Below, piece by piece: positions 3,308 to 12,850 of a DNA stretch of 18,760 nucleotides. The stretch comes from a virus (taxonomy: Duplodnaviria; Heunggongvirae; Uroviricota; Caudoviricetes): IMG/VR virus record IMGVR_UViG_2563366883_000018; one strand, written 5' to 3'. Both the position numbers and the translations under genes were made by a program. The notes below the pieces were generated by a model. That model was given only the letters and a program-made list of their open reading frames with translations, was not told the origin of the DNA and searched no databases. Within the stretch, counting starts at the first letter, position 1. Every line of letters begins with the position of its first letter.

Positions 3308-3883
3308 CTACGGCAGTGCTGGCCATTCAATATCCTGTGCAGTTGACGTATCAACACGGTTCAGCAATACCCGATACTTTTTCCATGCTTCCAGCAACGA
3401 GATTTCTTCCTCCGTTGCAATTTCCAGATCTGCAGCATCCTGAAGCGGCGCAATATGCTCACTGGCTACCTGCATCAGGTTGTTTTTTGTTTCTTCCGCC
3501 TCCCGGATCCGGAACAGTTTTTCTGCTTCCGTATCCTTCACCCAGGCTGTGCCGTTCCACTTCTGAAACTCCCCTTCCGGGGATAACCAGGTGACATTTT
3601 CCGGTAATGGGCCAAGTTCAGAAATAAATAACGCGTCGCCGGAAGCCACGTCATAGACGGTTTTACCCCGATGATCTTCAACGAGATGCCACGATGCCTC
3701 ATCACTGTTGAAAACAGCCACGAAGCCAGCCGGAATATCTGGCGGTGCAATATAGGAACTGTTTGCTGGCAGACCTGTATGAGGCGGAATATATGCGTCA
3801 CCTTCACCAATAAATTCATTAGTTCCTGCCAGCAGATTATAAATTTTTATGGTCCGTGGTTGTTCACTCATTCTGAATGCCAT
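3308..3883 (-). CDS. tfaQ: Tail fibre assembly protein (Tfa family), 191 aa
   Basis: ORF track 3308..3883(-); ATG at 3883-3881 overlaps the stf stop by 1 nt (TAATG), indicating translational coupling; lambda Tfa-like sequence. Confidence 0.9.
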
Positions 3884-6798
3884 TATGCAAGCCTCACAAT
3901 GTAGTTAAATGCGATGTTTTTGACAGTGTTTTCCGCGTTACCAGCAGCGTTAACGGTGATGGTGTGTCCATGTGAGCCAATCGCAACAGAGTGCGTATGA
4001 GCACCAATACCGACAGTATGTGCGTGAGCACCTGCAGATGCAGCTGTGCCGCTGACACTATGAGTGTGCGCTCCTGCAGCACTTGTATTCACACTGGCCG
4101 CAGACACTACCTTATGTACTGACCCATTTTGTGACCACTGGCTGACTGCTGATGCGCCTGTGACACTATGAGTATGGTTTCCGGCACTTGCGGCTGTACC
4201 GCTCACACTGTGCGTATGCGCCCCGGTGTTATTCGTGGATTTAGTGCCGTAATCAAACGACGATGTGGTTTTCGTCCCCAAATCCGTACTGGATGCACTG
4301 GCGCTGTGGGTGTGCGATTTAATGCCGTCCTGTTCCTGAGATAATACGGCCCGACCACTGGCAGGTTTGCCCTTAATCGTCCAGCCACGCATATCAGGGA
4401 TCACGCCTGACGGATAAGCGGTTGCAAGTTTCGGGTAAGCGGATTTGTCAAAAGTCTGCCCCTGCATCAGGGCATAACCAGACGGAACGGTATCTGATGG
4501 CCACGGGATTGGTGCGCCAGGCGGATAAAACTGCTCTGATGGCGTATAGAGTGAATAAACTGTACCGTCCGTTAACCCTTCCGGCTTATTAGCAGAATAT
4601 GCTGGTGACGTATGAATAGTCACGCTGGCATTACTGGTATAATCCCATTGAATATTTACACCAGTCGCATAATTTCCGATTGCAACGTAAATATCGTAAG
4701 TATCACCAGATGTATTGACCCAGGCAAAATTTGTAAACCCTGTCGATGTGCGCTGCCATAAAGCACCAGTAATCCCCTTCGGATTACCATTACCTGCACG
4801 CAAAACAAGTTCAGATATACCTGCCTGTTGAGGTGACCCCACGTTAAATCCCGCGCCACCAATCAACGTAATTGAAACAACAGAACTCGCCTGTGGCATG
4901 GTTACCGTTGCTAATTTGAACCAACCAGCACCACCGCTGAAGGACATTGTTGTTGAGTTAAGCGTACCAATATCTTTCGGCGTCAGTGTTATATCCGCTG
5001 AAAGCGCCTTACCATTCACCTTACGGGCAGAAGGTACCCGACCATTCGCATTATCATTAGCTGCTTTCACTGCTTTCGGTGTCGCGGCAAGCGTTTCAGA
5101 TGCGCTGTTGGTTGCACTACTGAGCTGGACAATTCCTTTTTGTGCTGTCGTAGCGTCCTGAGCAGTATATTTCCCGTTAGCAAGGTCATAGGCTGCCTTT
5201 ACCGACTTTGGCGTTGCCGCCAGCATTTCAGATGTGCTGTTGGTCGCGCTGCTGAGCTGAACTATCCCTTTCTGTGCTGTCGTTGCATCCTGTGCGGTGT
5301 ATTTCCCGTTAGCCAGCTCATACGCGGCCTTAACGGCTTTTGGCGTTGCCGCCAGTGACTCGGAAGTGCTGTTAGTCGCACTGCTGAGCTGTACTATCCC
5401 CTTTTTCGTCGTGCTCGCATCCTCAAGCGCCACGGCGGATGCAATATCCTCTGCCCGTTTTGCCGCTGTCTCGGCGCGCGTTGCCGCGGATTCCGCCGTA
5501 CTTTTGCTCTGAGCTGCCGCCGTCGCACTGCCAGCTGCCTCTGTCGCCTTCGTGGATGCCGTCGTGGCGCTGCCCTTTGCTGCTGACGCCTGTCTGGTCG
5601 CCTCATCTTTTGAAGCAGACGCAGATGATGCCGATGACGCCGCCGAACTGGCGGACGATGCGGCAGCCGTTTTTGAGGATTCTGCGCTGGTTTCCGACGC
5701 TTTCGCGTTCGTCTCGGATGTCTTCGCTGCGGAAGCAGACCTCGCTGCTGCGCTGGCCTGTTCAGTGGCTTCGCCAGCCTTCGTTGTGGCTGTTGAAGCG
5801 GACGATGCGGCGCTTTCTGCCGATTTTCCGGCAGCGGTGGCACTGGCTGAGGCCTGCCCGGCACTTGTTGACGCGGCACTGGCAGACGACGCAGCCGCTG
5901 TTTTTGAGCCTGCCGCAGCTGAGGCGCTCTGTCCCGCTGCCGTCTCAGAAGACCTGGCGTTCGTCTCGGACGTTTTTGCCGCCTTCGCGGAATTTGCTGC
6001 CGCCGTTGCCGAGGAAGCTGCGCTACTGGCGCTCGAGGATGCGTTCGTTTCTGATGATTTTGCCGCCTCTTTTGAAGCCGACGCATCCCGGGCTGAGGTG
6101 GCAGCTTCTGACGCTTTCGTAGTCGCGGTGGATGCAGAAGTGGCGGCTGATTGTTGTGACGCTGCAGCATTCGTTTCTGACGTTTTCGCGGCAGCGGCAC
6201 TGGTAGCTGCCGCGCTTTTTGAGGACTCTGCAGCGGCAGCACTTTTTTCCGCTTCAGTGGCCTTTGTTGATGCCGTTCCTGCGCTGGAAGACGCTGACTG
6301 AGCCGACGAAGCGGCCTGTCCGGCTGACGTGCTGGCTGCACGTGCTGAATCTGCAGCATCAGTCGCATGGGTTGCCGCCTCACGGGCAGATGTGCCGGCA
6401 TCACTGGCTGACTTCTTCGCGGCTGCCGTGTTCTGTGCCACCACGGACGCGTTACGCGCCACCTCTTCCACCATCTGTTCAAAACGGCGCAGTGCCTCCG
6501 GACGGGCATCATCCTCCGTCATGGCACCGAGAAAATCATTCAGCGTACCGGGTTGAGAATCTTCATACACGGTGATGGTCCCGGCATGTGACGGCGGGAA
6601 TCCTTCCACCAACAGAATAACGCTGTACTGCCCGTACTCAACGTCCATGCTGTAACGCCCGGCTTCATCCGGATTTTCTGAGGCCAGCGTGTTCACCACC
6701 ACCGTGGTGCTGTTACGTTTTGCTTTCAGCTGGATTGTGCAGTTCTGTACCGGTTTTCCTGTGCCATCTTTCAGTACACCTGAAATCTTTACTGCCAT
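3883..6798 (-). CDS. stfQ: Side tail fibre protein, full length (about 971 aa from ATG at 6798): lambda-Stf-like N-terminus, long Ala/Ser/Thr-rich central region, three tandem fibre repeats, His-rich HTHS C-terminal domain
   Basis: ORF track 3883..6804(-) begins with GTG; the ATG two codons in gives [26 protein letters not shown] (lambda Stf N-terminus as recalled) and is preceded by GGGGTGA; C-terminus ...[39 protein letters not shown] matches the lambda Stf C-terminus. Confidence 0.9.
5040..5410. repeat. Three tandem copies of a repeat of about 129 bp inside stfQ, encoding ...[44 protein letters not shown] (third copy degenerate)
   Basis: Visible in the protein (three near-identical 43-aa units) and in DNA (e.g. 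5091-5210 versus 5221-5340); boundaries approximate. Confidence 0.8.
5420..6470. repeat. GC-rich low-complexity region of stfQ encoding the Ala/Ser/Thr-rich segment; source of several spurious long alternative-frame ORFs
   Basis: Protein shows reiterated [18 protein letters not shown] motifs; DNA is dominated by GCNGC triplets; boundaries approximate. Confidence 0.7.
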
Positions 6799-6814
6799 AT
6801 TCACCCCACAAAAA

Positions 6815-6836
6815 AGCCCGCCTGAACCGGCGGGCT
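6815..6836 (-). terminator. Rho-independent terminator on the minus strand downstream of the lom fragment: 7-bp GC stem (6816-6822 with 6829-6835), then a T-run on the minus strand
   Basis: Minus strand reads ACAGCCCGCCGGTTCAGGCGGGCTTTTTTGTGG; the T-run overlaps the stf ribosome-binding region. Confidence 0.6.
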
Positions 6837-6862
6837 GTCATAACACTGTGTTACCTGGCTAA

Positions 6863-7300
6863 TCAGAACTTATAACCGACACCCACGATGAAACCGTCAG
6901 TGCGCCAGTCGCCACTGCCGGAGCCTTCATAAGCAATATCAATGGCCACGGATTCGGTCGGGTTAAACTGCACGCCAGCTCCCCACGCCAGAGACGTGTT
7001 GCTGTGGCGACCGTCATCACTTCCGGTCAGCACGTCGTGCGTTTTCCCCTTGTTGTCAGTTACGCGGAGATAATCCCCGGAGAAAGTCGACACACGGCTG
7101 TAAGCCATACCCGCCATCGCATACGCGCTGAACCATTCATTCACGCGCACAGACGGCCCCACCATCACGCTGAACCAGCGGTTACGCACGGAATCTTCAT
7201 GCCAGCGGGTATCGCTGTAACGGGTAAGCTGGCGATTCTTGTCTCCTGCATAGCTGCCGGACCCTCCATCCAGAATGACGCAATACGTGAACGCCGGGGA
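6863..7300 (-). pseudogene. lom: C-terminal fragment of a Lom/Ail/PagC-family outer-membrane beta-barrel protein; N-terminal part and signal peptide absent
   Basis: ORF track 6863..7189(-); frame stays open upstream to a stop at 7301-7303; translation ...[22 protein letters not shown]...AYEGSGSGDWRTDGFIVGVGYKF matches lambda Lom from about residue 85 to its C-terminal F. Confidence 0.75.
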
Positions 7301-8259
7301 TCACCATAACGACTGCCATCTGCATTGATGGATTCACCATCCCGTAACCAGACCCCACGTCCGTTCAGCTCGCGTTTTTGTTCAGGCAAAATCCGTCCTG
7401 AACAGGAAGGACACTGAATATAAGCCGCCTCACTTGCCAGCACAGGATCGGCAATATCACGGAAACCAGCAACCACATCGCCGCAGGGCTGAAAATACTC
7501 ACCACAGTGTGGACAGGGCCAGTACCAGCGACGGCGATCGCCACGGTTATAGAGCGACAGGATCCCCGTGGTTGGTGGAGCCTCATGCGGTGAAGTCCGT
7601 CGCCATTTCACATCCTTCACATCCCTGCCGGGGGAACTCTCCACCAGCGTCATACCACTGGACATAAATGTGGTGGTACGTTTTGAGGCAAGAGAGAAGG
7701 CATCCCCCTCACCATCAATATCTTCCGGAAAACGGTCATAATCCGTCAGCGCCACGCATTTATAATCTGATGAAGACATGATATTGACTGACGGCCAGCC
7801 GATTTTCAGGTAGTTGCCAGCAAGGAATGTTCTGTCATAAACGTTGTTGTCATTTTTGTTCGGACTCAGGCGACTGACCACTTCCGGGCTGACGCGAAAC
7901 GTTCTGGCGAGTCGTTTTTTGGAGTGTTCGCGGGCTTTTTCCTCCGTCATCTGAATGATCAGCATATCAGCAGGATCGCAAATCACGTTGTAAATCACCC
8001 AGCCGTCAATCAGGCCGATAGTCTTGCCGGTTCGTGCCGGGCCAACAAATATCACTGCGTCGTATTCACGCGAGGCCAGGCAGTTCATAGGCTCAATAAC
8101 ATACGGTGCCACCAGCGGATCCCACGGGACTGAGTTCCCTGCCCCCATAGGCACCCGCATATACTGAGCAACGGCATCAGCAACCCGCATTCGTCTCGGT
8201 GCGCGAAGGATATAACCTGAATCGGTTCGTGCTGCCTTTGCGGTTTCCTGATTCAGCAT
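7165..8259 (-). pseudogene. N-terminal fragment of a GpA-family large terminase subunit; the last ~40 codons of the ORF are out-of-frame lom sequence
   Basis: ORF track 7165..8259(-), 364 aa; P-loop GPARTGKT and CPHCGE zinc-finger-like motif as in lambda gpA; lambda gpA is about 641 aa, so the C-terminal half is missing; ATG at 8259 overlaps the nohA stop (TAATG). Confidence 0.8.
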
Positions 8260-8753
8260 TACTCCTCCTGCTGTAATTCCTCCTCATCATCCGCACCTGC
8301 TTCAGTCACCCGCAGGGCTATCTGATCGCGCAGATCATCAATAATGGACTGAACACGGCTCACAGCGGCAGGCTGCAGACCGCAGTCACGTTCAAGAATA
8401 TCCGGTAATGTCTCCAGCACCTGCACGACCGCTTTTGCCCAGATGGCAAACTCCCGTCTGACATCACTGGCCGGAATGAGTTGTGCCGTTTCCTGTTCGA
8501 ACTTAAGACGCTCACGTTCAGACTGATACCAGGCTTTGCGCTCATGCGCGTCCATTTCGCCTTCTGCAACCGGCGGTGGTAATGCCAGAAATGCCGACAC
8601 AATATCAACCACCCGATAAAGCTTGAGGTTGCTTTCATGCCCCCCTGCAACGGGTAGATTTTGCAGCCTTGCCGCAGCAGTCTGGCGATGTACACCTGAC
8701 AATGCCGCCAGTTGACTGATATTCAGCGTCAGATTTTTTAACTCTCGATCCAT
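8259..8753 (-). CDS. nohA: Terminase small subunit (Nu1-like), 164 aa, with N-terminal HTH
   Basis: ORF track 8259..8753(-); N-terminal HTH-like [24 protein letters not shown], acidic C-terminus; position immediately downstream of a cos-like site and upstream of the large terminase; the gene symbol rests on position and on a recalled NohA/NohQ identity. Confidence 0.8.
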
Positions 8754-8992: not shown

Positions 8993-9127
8993 TGATGAGC
9001 ATCTGATACAGCGCTTTACATAATGGCATAGGAATAATTCAGAAGGACATCACAGCATGCCCACACAAATTAGTGTGAGTGTCCTGTTTCTTCCTACGCA
9101 CAGGACTGACGAGCATGAGGGGAAAAT

Positions 9128-9295
9128 ATGCGAACCATAAATGCCTCATCTTCAGCAATGCAACCGGCATCCGAACAGGACGATATTGTAAATTCACCTA
9201 ATTACGAGGACATTGCAGTAGTTGAATTGCAGCTCTGTATTAGCCTGACAGTGACAGAATGCGATATTGACTCTGTCACAGGTGAAATAGTTTGA
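9128..9295 (+). CDS. Hypothetical acidic small protein, 55 aa (below the ORF-track threshold)
   Basis: ATG at 9128 preceded by GAGGGG (9117-9122) with 5-nt spacing; TGA at 9293-9295; no recognisable domain. Confidence 0.3.
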   Translation: MRTINASSSAMQPASEQDDIVNSPNYEDIAVVELQLCISLTVTECDIDSVTGEIV

Positions 9296-9315
9296 ATGAT
9301 TAGCAGTTATGGTGC

Positions 9316-9522
9316 TCAGTCAACCACCAGGGAATAATCCTTCGAATTCTTATCGTGCTTCACCAACGCTGCCTCAATTGCCCTGAATGCTTCCAGAGAC
9401 ACCTGATGTTCTATACATGCAATTACAACATCCGGGTAACTCATAGAAATGGTGCTATTAAGCATATTTTTTACACGAATCAGATCCAACGAGAGTTCAT
9501 CAGCAGATTGTTCTTTATTCAT
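9316..9522 (-). CDS. Hypothetical prophage protein, 68 aa
   Basis: ORF track 9316..9522(-); ATG start with upstream GGAG at 7-nt spacing; lies between nohA and ydfO, where K-12 Qin has ynfO, but I cannot confirm identity. Confidence 0.45.
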
Positions 9523-9822
9523 TTTGTCGCTCCATGCGTTTGCTCGTCATCTAGCGGTTAAAATATTACTTCAAATCTTACTGCATAAAAGAGGAAAAGT
9601 ATGAAAGTTTGAGTACATCGACCTTACATACATCTGTCGGTTGCATATCCCTCCTGGATGCCAGCAAGGCTCAATTTTGTTACGCAATCAACACTATTCA
9701 TTAAAAACAGGCTTAATATTTGACATAAATCATCAACAAAACACAAAGAGGTCAGACCAGATTGAAACAATAAACACGATAATGCTAACTACGCGCCATC
9801 GTATCACATGGAAGGTTTACCA

Positions 9823-10254
9823 ATGGCTCAGGCTGCCATTTTTAAAGAAATATTCGATCAAGTGCGTAAAGATTTAAACTGTGAATTATTTTATTCTGAG
9901 CTAAAACGTCACAATGTCTCACTTTATATTTACTATTTAGCCACAGATAATATTCACATTGTGTTAGAAAACGACAACATAGTGTTAGTAAAAGGACTCA
10001 AAAAGGTTGTAAATGTTAAATTCTCCAGAAACAAACATCTTATAGAGACCTCCTATAATAAGTTGTAATCAAAAGAAATCACATTTCAACAATACAGGGA
10101 AAATCTTGCTAAAGCAGGAGTTTTCCGATGGGTTACAAATATCCAGGAACACCAAAGATATTACTATGCCTTTGATAACTCATTACTATTTACTGAAAGC
10201 ATCCAGAAAATTACTGAAAGCATCCAGAAAACTACACAGATCTTACCACGCTAA
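9823..10254 (+). pseudogene. ydfO: YdfO-like (DUF1398-type) prophage gene interrupted by an in-frame TAA at 10066-10068, with an in-frame 21-bp tandem duplication near the 3' end
   Basis: ATG at 9823 preceded by GGAAGG; the frame is continuous from 9823 to TAA at 10252-10254 except for the single stop; the segment after the stop reads ...[44 protein letters not shown]..., which looks like genuine protein sequence. Confidence 0.65.
10190..10231. repeat. Perfect 21-bp tandem duplication (TTACTGAAAGCATCCAGAAAA x2), in frame within ydfO ([14 protein letters not shown])
   Basis: Read directly from sequence. Confidence 0.9.
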
Positions 10255-10405
10255 ACCATAACGTCTGGCTTCTCTCACTCCTGAGCCGGACTGCATTGGT
10301 TTAATAAAAACCATCAACAATTGTGATTTAGATATTCGGAACCATTCAAATATAACAAAACCCCGTAAAAACGAGGTTTATGGATAAATTTTATTATTGA
10401 ATACA

Positions 10406-10579
10406 TCAGATTAAATTAATCTTGACATCATAGCTTTCAAGACCCGTCATTTTTTCCCGTGCGGTAAACTGAATACTGGTAACTTCTTTCCCGGTCTTTT
10501 TCTTAAGTTCAATAATTTTTTTTGTTATATATTCAGAAATATCTGCTTCTGCTTTTGTTTTTAAGTCTTCAATATTCAT
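10406..10579 (-). CDS. gnsB: GnsA/GnsB-family small protein, 57 aa (below the ORF-track threshold)
   Basis: Manual translation of the minus strand: MNIEDLKTKAEADISEYITKKIIELKKKTGKEVTSIQFTAREKMTGLESYDVKINLI; GAGG 5 nt upstream of the ATG; length and sequence fit recalled GnsB. Confidence 0.8.
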   Translation of the reverse strand: MNIEDLKTKAEADISEYITKKIIELKKKTGKEVTSIQFTAREKMTGLESYDVKINLI

Positions 10580-10750
10580 CATTTCCTCTTTTAGTCTGTT
10601 ATGACTTTCCAGTTACACAGTAAGTCGATTATATGGTGCAAACGTGTAAAAGATAAGATGAAACATCGCAATAATCAACATACGATAGTCTAAATTTTAC
10701 ACAAACAGACAAAGAGAATTTTCCTGAATTATCAATGCAATAGCATCAAA

Positions 10751-10981
10751 TCAACTCAAGAGCCTTATTGCTGCTTCCAGAATTTCTTCTGAAGTAACAT
10801 GTCGATCCGCGGCTACATAAATGACTTTATGATCTCCGGTCAGAGATGGAAACCCTGCGGCCATTACAGTAAGGTGTGTTTTTTCGCCATTTGGATATTC
10901 ACGCATGATGGTGTTAACTCCAGTCATCGCTGGCACTACCACTGCTGGTTCAGAGTTAAAAAAAACTATGATTTTTTTCAT
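10751..10981 (-). CDS. Hypothetical prophage protein, 76 aa, immediately upstream of gnsB (possibly ynfN/YmcE-like)
   Basis: ORF track 10751..11023(-); the internal ATG at 10981 (MKKIIVFF...) gives 76 aa; identity with ynfN not confirmed. Confidence 0.5.
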   Translation of the reverse strand: MKKIIVFFNSEPAVVVPAMTGVNTIMREYPNGEKTHLTVMAAGFPSLTGDHKVIYVAADRHVTSEEILEAAIRLLS

Positions 10982-11252
10982 GATGTTACCGTAGTATGTG
11001 AGTATCCATCGAATAGACACCAAGCAAAAAAGCTCCCGAAGGAGCCTTCATTTTCACTTTTTTAAATCCAACGACAGACGGCTGGCATTTAAGTATTGTG
11101 AAATATTATCAAATGTAATCATCATTGATTTACAAAAGATACATTTTGCCCCGAAAGGATTCATGTCAGAAACATCAAAAGATGATGTTCTATACTGGGA
11201 ACCATGACAACACGGGCATCTAAAGTGAATATGGTTTGTAATATTGTCTACC

Positions 11253-11465
11253 TCAAAGCGCCACTACATGAACAGCGGCAGGACCTTTAGGTCCGTTCTC
11301 AATACCAAATTCAACTTCCTGATTCTCAGTTAATGTTTTGAAATCGTTGCTCTGAATTGCTGAGAAATGGACAAACACATCTTTGCTGCCATCTTTCGGC
11401 GTGATGAAACCAAAACCTTTTTCAGGGTTAAACCATTTCACTAAACCAGTCATTTTGTTAGACAT
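11253..11465 (-). CDS. cspI: CspA-family cold-shock protein, 70 aa
   Basis: ORF track 11253..11465(-); [13 protein letters not shown]...KGFGFI...FVHFSA cold-shock domain with RNP1/RNP2 motifs; followed on the minus strand by a long AT-rich leader (11466 to about 11650). Confidence 0.93.
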
Positions 11466-11826
11466 AATTATTACCTTTTGAAGAAATTAGCCCTTGGGCA
11501 GAATGGTCCGAAAAAAATATCAGAGAGAAAAACCAACAAGGAAATCTCAAGAGGTACAAATAATAAAATTATAACAATGACTGCTTCAGATAAATTTGTA
11601 ACAAACCAGAACACCATTAACGCATGATTAACCACCCATAGCAAGGATTACTTTTGTAAAGAAAAACACAGCAATGAAAGAATAGCTTTATTTATTAATA
11701 AAACGTGTCATTCTGATTAAGACCTTTTATCTTACCCTTAAGATTTCAGGAATTTTGGCTCATGGAAGAGTCCTTTTTATTCAAATTTTACATTCCGCGA
11801 TGTAAATGTTCCGATTTAATATTACC

Positions 11827-12850
<1,024 letters not shown>

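Follow-up and report, generated by a model that had tools for sequence, protein, structure and literature searches.

The locus considered here is a run of five small genes, cspI, ynfQ, ynfR, ynfN and gnsB, carried by an 18,760-nucleotide (nt) stretch of DNA from a virus of the Caudoviricetes (IMG/VR record IMGVR_UViG_2563366883_000018; Duplodnaviria, Heunggongvirae, Uroviricota), which we call the window and whose positions supply the coordinates given below. All five genes lie on the minus strand and are described in the order of transcription. A first-pass annotation of the window, made from the letters alone, had recognised the last gene as a homologue of gnsB, had pointed to an open reading frame (ORF) of 76 amino acids (aa) upstream of it, and had likened the two to the ymcE-gnsA pair of the Escherichia coli chromosome, proposed elsewhere as a toxin-antitoxin module, so that the window would hold a second, prophage-borne copy. 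Our analysis favours a different reading, in which the locus is probably a prophage accessory cassette of cold-shock type, cspI-ynfQ-ynfR-ynfN, to which a gene that modulates lipids, gnsB, is loosely linked.

Foremost in the cassette is cspI (11253-11465), which encodes a 70-aa cold-shock protein of the CspA family (Pfam CSD, E=1.6e-31; RefSeq annotation). After a gap of 10 nt it is followed by ynfQ (11054-11242; named 'ymcF' by the Prokaryotic Genome Annotation Pipeline, PGAP), whose cysteine-rich product of 62 aa is a YmcF-like small protein by Pfam (PF23641, E=6.9e-32), by RefSeq annotation and by alignment with YmcF, and, 2 nt further on, by ynfR (10986-11051), a RefSeq-annotated small ORF of 21 aa (MKAPSGAFLLGVYSMDTHILR). 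Inside ynfR, directly 3' of ynfQ and with the ynfQ stop codon a few nt upstream of its stem, lies a GC-rich hairpin that resembles a terminator or attenuator (11024-11050; GGCTCC-TTCG-GGAGC followed by T6; -14.9 kcal/mol). Another 4 nt separate ynfR from ynfN (10751-10981), present in its full-length form of 231 nt and 76 aa, in which DNA alignment places a run of eight T residues (T8, or A8 on the plus strand; 10958-10965) across codons 6-8. A non-coding spacer of 171 nt (10580-10750), characterised by alignment of spacers, leads to gnsB (10406-10579; 174 nt, 57 aa), assigned to the GnsA/GnsB family from the ORF list, Pfam PF08178 and RefSeq annotation, and 27 nt past the gnsB stop codon a terminator scan located a hairpin followed by a T-run (10358-10379) of the kind seen in intrinsic terminators (RNAfold, -12.1 kcal/mol for the region). 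The first-pass annotation was correct in placing gnsB downstream of the 76-aa ORF, on the same strand and near cspI; the 171-nt gap means that gnsB does not follow directly, and the juxtaposition with cspI overlooked ynfR and ynfQ, which stand in between.

A 3.4-kb portion of the window (9000-12400) is 99.9% identical to many RefSeq chromosomes of E. coli. In one of these, NZ_CP050998, the same coding sequences carry the labels gnsB and 'ynfN: protein YnfN', and both ynfR (21 aa) and ynfQ/'ymcF' (62 aa) are annotated between ynfN and cspI. Genes, order, strand and spacing are likewise those of cspI-ynfQ-ynfR-ynfN-gnsB in the cryptic Qin prophage of E. coli K-12 (b1552, b4724, b4749, b1551, b1550) and of the matching region of phage Tritos / mEp460_ev081 / 2H10. 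Neither the genes nor the prophage accessory region that contains them is new: the former have been annotated before, and the latter is known.

The identity of the 76-aa product was established by sequence comparison. Within the minus-strand ORF at 10751-11023, translation from the ATG at 10981 gives a protein of 76 aa (MKKIIVFFNSEPAVVV...RLLS), identical in sequence to RefSeq WP_000720962.1 ('protein YnfN') and matching phrog_3425 over positions 1-76 of 76 (E=7.2e-54). The comparison with YnfN that had been proposed for it therefore resolves simply: the ORF is full-length YnfN. The K-12 gene (b1551) has T7 (L003, 4162-4168) where the window has T8, and this is the sole difference between the two genes in the DNA alignment; because T7 shifts the frame after codon 7, an internal ATG is the only usable start, and the K-12 annotation gives YnfN a length of 51 aa. 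The two alleles both occur widely in E. coli, the exact 76-aa and 51-aa proteins each being present on at least 1000 contigs.

The 76-aa form is the ancestral and functional one and the 51-aa form of K-12 is a frameshift remnant, as argued by the complete phrog_3425 match, the length of homologues, the integrity of the ORF, the ratio of nonsynonymous to synonymous substitution rates (dN/dS) and the conserved N-terminus. Homologues have 75-76 aa even where identity falls to 52%, with M1, K3, V6, F7, F8 and N9 invariant, and the internal Met that serves as the K-12 start is not conserved among them. We assembled 46 ynfN loci from one genome per species, in which neighbouring genes were identified by tblastn and by hidden Markov model (HMM) searches of all ORFs of the locus. 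At this species level an intact ORF of 70-80 aa begins from the same ATG in 43 of the 46 loci, ynfN has a median dN/dS of 0.13, and constraint on its first 25 codons equals that on the rest of the gene (pooled ratio of nonsynonymous to synonymous differences, pN/pS, 0.32 for each). The 76-aa ORF is thus a real gene that selection has maintained. Its homologues are found in the Enterobacteriaceae only, in about 14 enterobacterial genera, and a profile search of 1.8 billion representatives with YnfN retrieved just 46 clusters, made up of short proteins of about 75 aa or fragments.

YnfN is predicted to be a small soluble protein: its AlphaFold2 model (predicted local distance difference test score, pLDDT, 88) contains five beta-strands and a C-terminal helix. 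No match to the protein was obtained in Pfam, NCBIfam or PADLOC, nor did a profile search against PDB sequences give one. Foldseek searches with the model returned a best E of 0.38 in PDB, with template modelling (TM) scores of at most 0.32, and a best E of 0.06 in BFVD, and no hit in either exceeded a TM score of 0.52, so that the predicted fold appears to resemble no solved structure and no viral structure of BFVD. Judged by sequence profile and by these PDB and BFVD fold searches, the modelled protein displays no feature of a DNA-binding antitoxin.

The second gene of the presumed pair, gnsB, was recognised correctly. The minus-strand ORF at 10406-10582 has in-frame ATG codons at 10582 and 10579, and the second of these yields a GnsB of 57 aa, preceded at 5-7 nt by a strong Shine-Dalgarno sequence (AAGAGGA). 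The protein covers the whole of the 54-position profile of Pfam PF08178 (1-54; E=5.4e-35), with 119.6 bits where the cutoff is 27. It shares 67% identity with K-12 GnsA, matches the GnsA crystal structures 4XO1 and 4XO2 (E~1e-20), and is one residue (D5N) apart from K-12 GnsB; RefSeq too names it gnsB. Over-expressed GnsA and GnsB raise the content of unsaturated fatty acids (16:1/18:1) and suppress lapC190 as well as the cold sensitivity of fadR mutants that lack guanosine tetraphosphate (ppGpp) (bioRxiv 2024.03.27.586906; PMC10607373). Suppression of fabA6 and of a secG-null mutation by over-expression is also on record, the report on K-12 GnsB being that of Sugai et al. 2001, as cited in the same two papers (bioRxiv 2024.03.27.586906; PMC10607373). 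The plasmids concerned restore growth to the mutants and do not kill (bioRxiv 2024.03.27.586906; PMC10607373), and the effects of GnsA/B are greatest at low temperature (PMC10607373).

Pfam and RefSeq nevertheless label the family 'addiction module toxin'. The proposal that GnsA and YmcE form a toxin-antitoxin pair, to which the first-pass annotation had alluded accurately, is that of Wei et al. 2015, as cited in two surveys (PMC8484670; PMC6265476). To the extent that these surveys document its origin, the label stems from this one structural paper and was then repeated by surveys as a prediction (PMC8484670; PMC6265476).

The comparison with YmcE failed at the level of protein. No alignment of the 76-aa ORF with YmcE was reported by blastp at E<=100, the very outcome that the first-pass annotation had named as telling against its analogy. 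YnfN did not match Pfam PF15939 (YmcE_antitoxin) at E<=10, YmcE itself scoring 1.6e-56; the best Smith-Waterman match between the two proteins extended over only 6 residues; and tblastn with YmcE found nothing in the 46 ynfN loci. By these sequence comparisons YnfN is unrelated to YmcE, and their shared length of 76 aa is a coincidence.

At the level of the locus, the resemblance is genuine. The K-12 order is cspH(-), cspG, ymcF, ymcE, gnsA, with gnsA downstream of ymcE and near csp genes as the first-pass annotation had said, and cspG-ymcF-ymcE-gnsA as a whole is paralogous to the locus in the window: CspG corresponds to CspI, YmcF to YnfQ and GnsA to GnsB (67% identity), the hairpin and the gns leader are both represented, and all lie on one strand. 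What did not hold is the casting of the 76-aa ORF as the YmcE-like partner. K-12 ymcE (L002, 2348-2578) has an overlap of 26 nt with ymcF and one of 11 nt with gnsA, against the 171-nt gap between ynfN and gnsB in the window, and its ORF spans the 3' end of ymcF, then the terminator hairpin in the ynfR frame, then the conserved gns leader. Residues 10-19 of YmcE (RLPRGAFFI) are the same reading of the hairpin as residues 1-10 of YnfR (MKAPSGAFLL). We also considered whether ymcE might be a decayed ynfN: a three-way MAFFT alignment showed scattered islands of similarity, and local alignments controlled by shuffling rejected the idea. In these, the ymcE body scored z=1.7 against ynfN of the window and z<=0.8 against ynfN of Citrobacter. 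The same 151-nt body scored z=5.9, 9.2 and 8.6 against the non-coding ynfN-gns spacers of Citrobacter, scores that were reached by 0-1 of 300 dinucleotide shuffles. On the alignments, then, the DNA segment homologous to the ymcE body would be the spacer between ynfN and gns and not ynfN; since the ymcE body pairs with the spacer and YnfN has no similarity to YmcE, ynfN is without a counterpart in the cspG-gnsA locus of E. coli. The proposal of a second copy of the ymcE-gnsA module accordingly fails by sequence, by homology of the DNA, by co-occurrence and by gene spacing.

The position of ymcE over the hairpin and the gns leader, together with the confinement of YmcE homologues to Escherichia, Shigella and E. 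albertii, casts doubt on whether YmcE (PF15939) is genuinely a protein-coding gene. One could go further and suppose that YmcE is not the real partner of GnsA, and that YnfN was the ancestral occupant of the interval between csp/ymcF and gns, lost from the cspG locus of E. coli to leave an ORF, ymcE, found in Escherichia alone. We regard this extension as speculative and more probably wrong than right. Were it true, YnfN, and not YmcE, would be the candidate partner or modulator of GnsA/B-type proteins, and the 'addiction module' labels of the GnsA/B family in Pfam and RefSeq would rest on a spurious ORF.

The neighbourhood of ynfN across genomes shows with which genes it keeps company. Upstream and on the same strand a CspA-family gene is present in 37 of the 46 loci, a YnfQ/YmcF-like gene lies immediately upstream in 36, and one or both occur in 41. 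A gns gene is found downstream in 17 loci, which belong to Escherichia/Shigella, Citrobacter and three divergent prophages; the other 29 have no gns within 3 kb, and their downstream neighbours differ from locus to locus. The evolutionary partner of YnfN is therefore the csp/ymcF-type gene pair and not gns, and the linkage of ynfN with gns is that of a loose cassette rather than the tight coupling of a toxin-antitoxin operon. Kluyvera, Citrobacter amalonaticus, Phytobacter, Enterobacter and others have a chromosomal arrangement, cspH(-)/cspG(+)-ymcF-ynfN, in which ynfN occupies the slot that ymcE has in E. coli. The YnfN homologue of such loci, 75 aa long and 51-60% identical, comes right after csp with or without a ymcF-like gene; unlike the locus in the window, these loci are not prophage-borne and have no gns downstream.

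A separate set of observations concerns ynfQ and ymcF, the most constant neighbours of ynfN. In both genes (ynfQ at 11054-11242 of the window; ymcF at 2185-2373 of L002) the annotated start is a non-canonical ATT, and the 62-aa products share a cysteine-rich CxCC...CxxC pattern and the YmcF-like assignment in Pfam; they are probably zinc-ribbon-like. Two contigs labelled as non-enterobacterial, one a metagenome-assembled genome of Veillonella parvula (L004) and the other Chryseobacterium sp. (L031), carry cspI-ynfQ-ynfN of E. coli or Scandinavium type at up to 100% identity, most likely as a result of binning or assembly contamination.

The hairpin that follows ynfQ has a conserved equivalent behind ymcF in the cspG locus, and loci of Citrobacter, Raoultella and Klebsiella retain it with compensatory changes in the stem. 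It may act as an attenuator, which Csp antitermination or translation might relieve. CspA-family proteins reportedly act as transcription antiterminators (a finding ascribed to Bae et al. 2000), and a self-reinforcing read-through by this route would be a plausible step in the expression of the cassette. Within the ynfN-gnsB spacer, a block (TTGATTATTG...TTTC...TATCTTTTA) is conserved in the ynfN-gns spacers of Citrobacter and also upstream of K-12 gnsA, inside the 'ymcE' ORF. The corresponding gap measures 130-450 nt in other loci. In prophages of Siccibacter (L045, ~3420-3480) and Silvania (L047, ~3440-3500) it reaches about 450 nt, with a strong intrinsic terminator and, after it, a TATAAT-like element, from which it follows that ynfN and gns are separate transcription units there.

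Published expression data connect ynfN with cspI. YnfR carrying a sequential peptide affinity (SPA) tag is strongly induced by cold shock (PMC6001520). Treatment with azidothymidine (AZT) induces cspI, ynfQ and ynfN 6.5-, 5.9- and 5.8-fold, with SspA dependence of 38, 42 and 51, respectively (PMC11228462), and in long-term stationary phase the profiles of cspI and ynfN are near-identical (PMC7406224). In lysogens of the functional phage Tritos, which also carries gnsB and encodes a YnfN with 100% identity to that of the window, CspI stands 93-fold and YnfN 27-fold over the prophage background, and GnsB is not among the genes at 5-fold or more over that background (PMC9928086). The co-variation of cspI and ynfN, with gnsB missing from these lists, is what one would expect if ynfN were transcribed together with cspI by leakage through the terminator and gnsB were controlled differently.

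Together these results lead us to propose, at a probability of about 0.6, that the window carries a cold-shock-type accessory ('moron') cassette of a prophage, cspI-ynfQ-ynfR-ynfN, to which the lipid-modulating gnsB is loosely linked, and not a toxin-antitoxin pair. As regards the cold-shock character of the cassette, a csp gene lies upstream on the same strand in 37 of 46 loci, and co-regulation is taken from the literature only (cold induction of YnfR; ynfN tracking cspI). The tightly packed cspI-ynfQ-ynfR-ynfN would be one unit, transcribed from the cspI promoter; because the terminator-like hairpin sits between ynfQ and ynfN, the latter would be expressed by partial read-through, at a fraction of the level of cspI and under the same regulation. 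A second unit, 171 nt further on, would be gnsB, with its own conserved leader, strong ribosome-binding site and terminator. When over-expressed, GnsB raises unsaturated fatty acids and with them the fluidity of the membrane, which makes a role in cold adaptation plausible, and it has no demonstrated toxin activity.

Several points weigh against this proposal. A scan of the ynfN-gnsB spacer for promoters gave no sigma-70 site at 9/12 or better; inspection by eye revealed a conserved TTGATT-N17-TATCTT (8/12) and a perfect TATAAT, for which no promoter is claimed. Read-through at the hairpin, separate control of gnsB from a promoter of its own, and a function of YnfN in cold adaptation are steps that we infer, the last by association with its neighbours, and read-through from cspI might account for all transcription of gnsB. 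The failure of gnsB to appear in the published lists in which cspI and ynfN co-vary is negative evidence, drawn from tables with cut-offs. Finally, three distant prophages, of UBA3516 (L040), Siccibacter (L045) and Silvania (L047), keep ynfN and gns together without csp or ynfQ, a hint that the two may be linked in some way, by function or as parts of a cassette.

In a rival account cspI-ynfQ-ynfR-ynfN-gnsB is one cold-shock operon whose products would jointly serve adaptation to low temperature, YnfN and GnsB cooperating in the remodelling of membrane or lipids with no toxin logic. The five genes do share a strand, the only strong terminator lies after gnsB, and in the paralogous cspG-ymcF-gnsA locus 194 nt separate gnsA from ymcF and no further promoter is apparent. 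The low-temperature optimum of GnsA/B effects (PMC10607373) agrees with this account, as does one microarray clustering that groups gnsB with cspB, cspC and cspI (PMC2717919); no cold induction of gnsB was found documented in the papers searched. Against it stand the absence of gnsB from the lists that unite cspI and ynfN, the lack of gns at most ynfN loci, and the independent conservation of the gns leader, which suggests control of its own. We consider a single operon unlikely. Far less attractive is the notion that the 76-aa ORF has no function here and is a decaying passenger, only cspI and gnsB being of consequence. The frameshifted K-12-type allele is indeed common in E. coli, and YnfN has no recognisable domain or fold relative, but an ORF that is intact in 43 of 46 loci and occurs in about 14 genera, with a dN/dS of 0.13 and a conserved N-terminus, is hardly in decay; the confidently predicted compact fold (pLDDT 88) and the transcription of ynfN in lysogens (PMC9928086) tell the same way, and we hold this alternative to be very improbable.

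There is finally the possibility, closest to the original suggestion, that YnfN and GnsB are a genuine toxin-antitoxin or regulator-neutraliser pair in which YnfN, a new kind of partner unrelated to YmcE, binds and controls GnsB. It would account for the shared strand and for a small upstream gene followed by gns in 17 of 46 loci, for the retention of just these two genes in the UBA3516, Siccibacter and Silvania prophages, and for the 'addiction module toxin' label that the family bears in Pfam and RefSeq; there is also a superficial likeness to type II systems such as relBE and yefM-yoeB, in that a mobile element carries two small genes on one strand and the putative 'toxin' is the downstream one. 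Unlike those systems, however, ynfN and gnsB do not overlap and are separated by a long gap (171 nt here, 130-450 nt elsewhere, and interrupted by a terminator in L045 and L047), do not strictly co-occur, and offer no antitoxin-type fold and no evidence of autoregulation or of GnsB toxicity. No gns is found within 3 kb at 29 of the 46 loci, gnsA exists in E. coli in the absence of any ynfN, and YnfN resembles neither antitoxin families nor DNA-binding folds, PADLOC likewise returning nothing. Moreover, the K-12 lineage has an intact gnsB beside a frameshifted ynfN, and the 51-aa form is on at least 1000 contigs, which counts against an essential antitoxin, the loss of which should not be tolerated so widely; and over-expression of GnsA/B rescues mutants and does not kill (bioRxiv 2024.03.27.586906; PMC10607373). 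We judge such a pair improbable.

On the reading preferred here, that of a cold-shock-type cassette with gnsB loosely attached, the consequences are chiefly corrective, and for biology at large little changes. The ynfN-gnsB arrangement should not be propagated as a second module of the GnsA/YmcE toxin-antitoxin type, and the location of ymcE over a terminator and the gns leader, with its confinement to Escherichia, weakens the labels 'GnsAB toxin / YmcE antitoxin' in Pfam, RefSeq and surveys of toxin-antitoxin systems. YnfN, conserved alongside cold-shock genes of the csp/ymcF type, is a reasonable small target for studies of cold adaptation, and functional work on it should take the 76-aa allele, as in the window.

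The surroundings of the cassette are those of a lambdoid prophage remnant of the Qin/Tritos type, in which it lies between the packaging and the lysis genes. The left part of the window contains a gene for a transporter of the major facilitator superfamily (MFS) at the left edge, a Pin-type invertase, a tail-fibre assembly gene, a tail-fibre gene and a gene with DUF1441 (DUF, domain of unknown function); the right part contains an Rz-like gene (DUF2514), a lysozyme gene and genes with DUF1327 and DUF968. The Rz-like, lysozyme, DUF1327, terminase and tail-fibre genes bear out the first-pass view that the locus is prophage-borne. Within 3883-8753, the ORF for the terminase large subunit (7165-8259, minus strand) encodes only the GpA ATPase domain, with 364 aa where a related prophage has about 699 aa, and is separated by about 360 nt from the tail-fibre gene (3883-6804, minus strand); this close spacing indicates that the head and tail structural genes have been deleted and that the prophage is defective. 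Adjacent to the cassette, on the plus strand, a DUF1398 (ydfO-like) gene (9808-10068 and 10190-10231) has a premature TAA at 10066-10068, which sets the window apart from the Qin/Tritos region; strain F8704-2 and K-12 both have AAA at this codon, and the gene in the window also has a 21-nt in-frame tandem duplication that K-12 ydfO does not have. Between the packaging genes and the DUF1398 gene lies a conserved ORF of 68 aa (9316-9522, minus strand) that matches phrog_657 (E=5e-47) and is annotated in RefSeq as 'hypothetical protein'.

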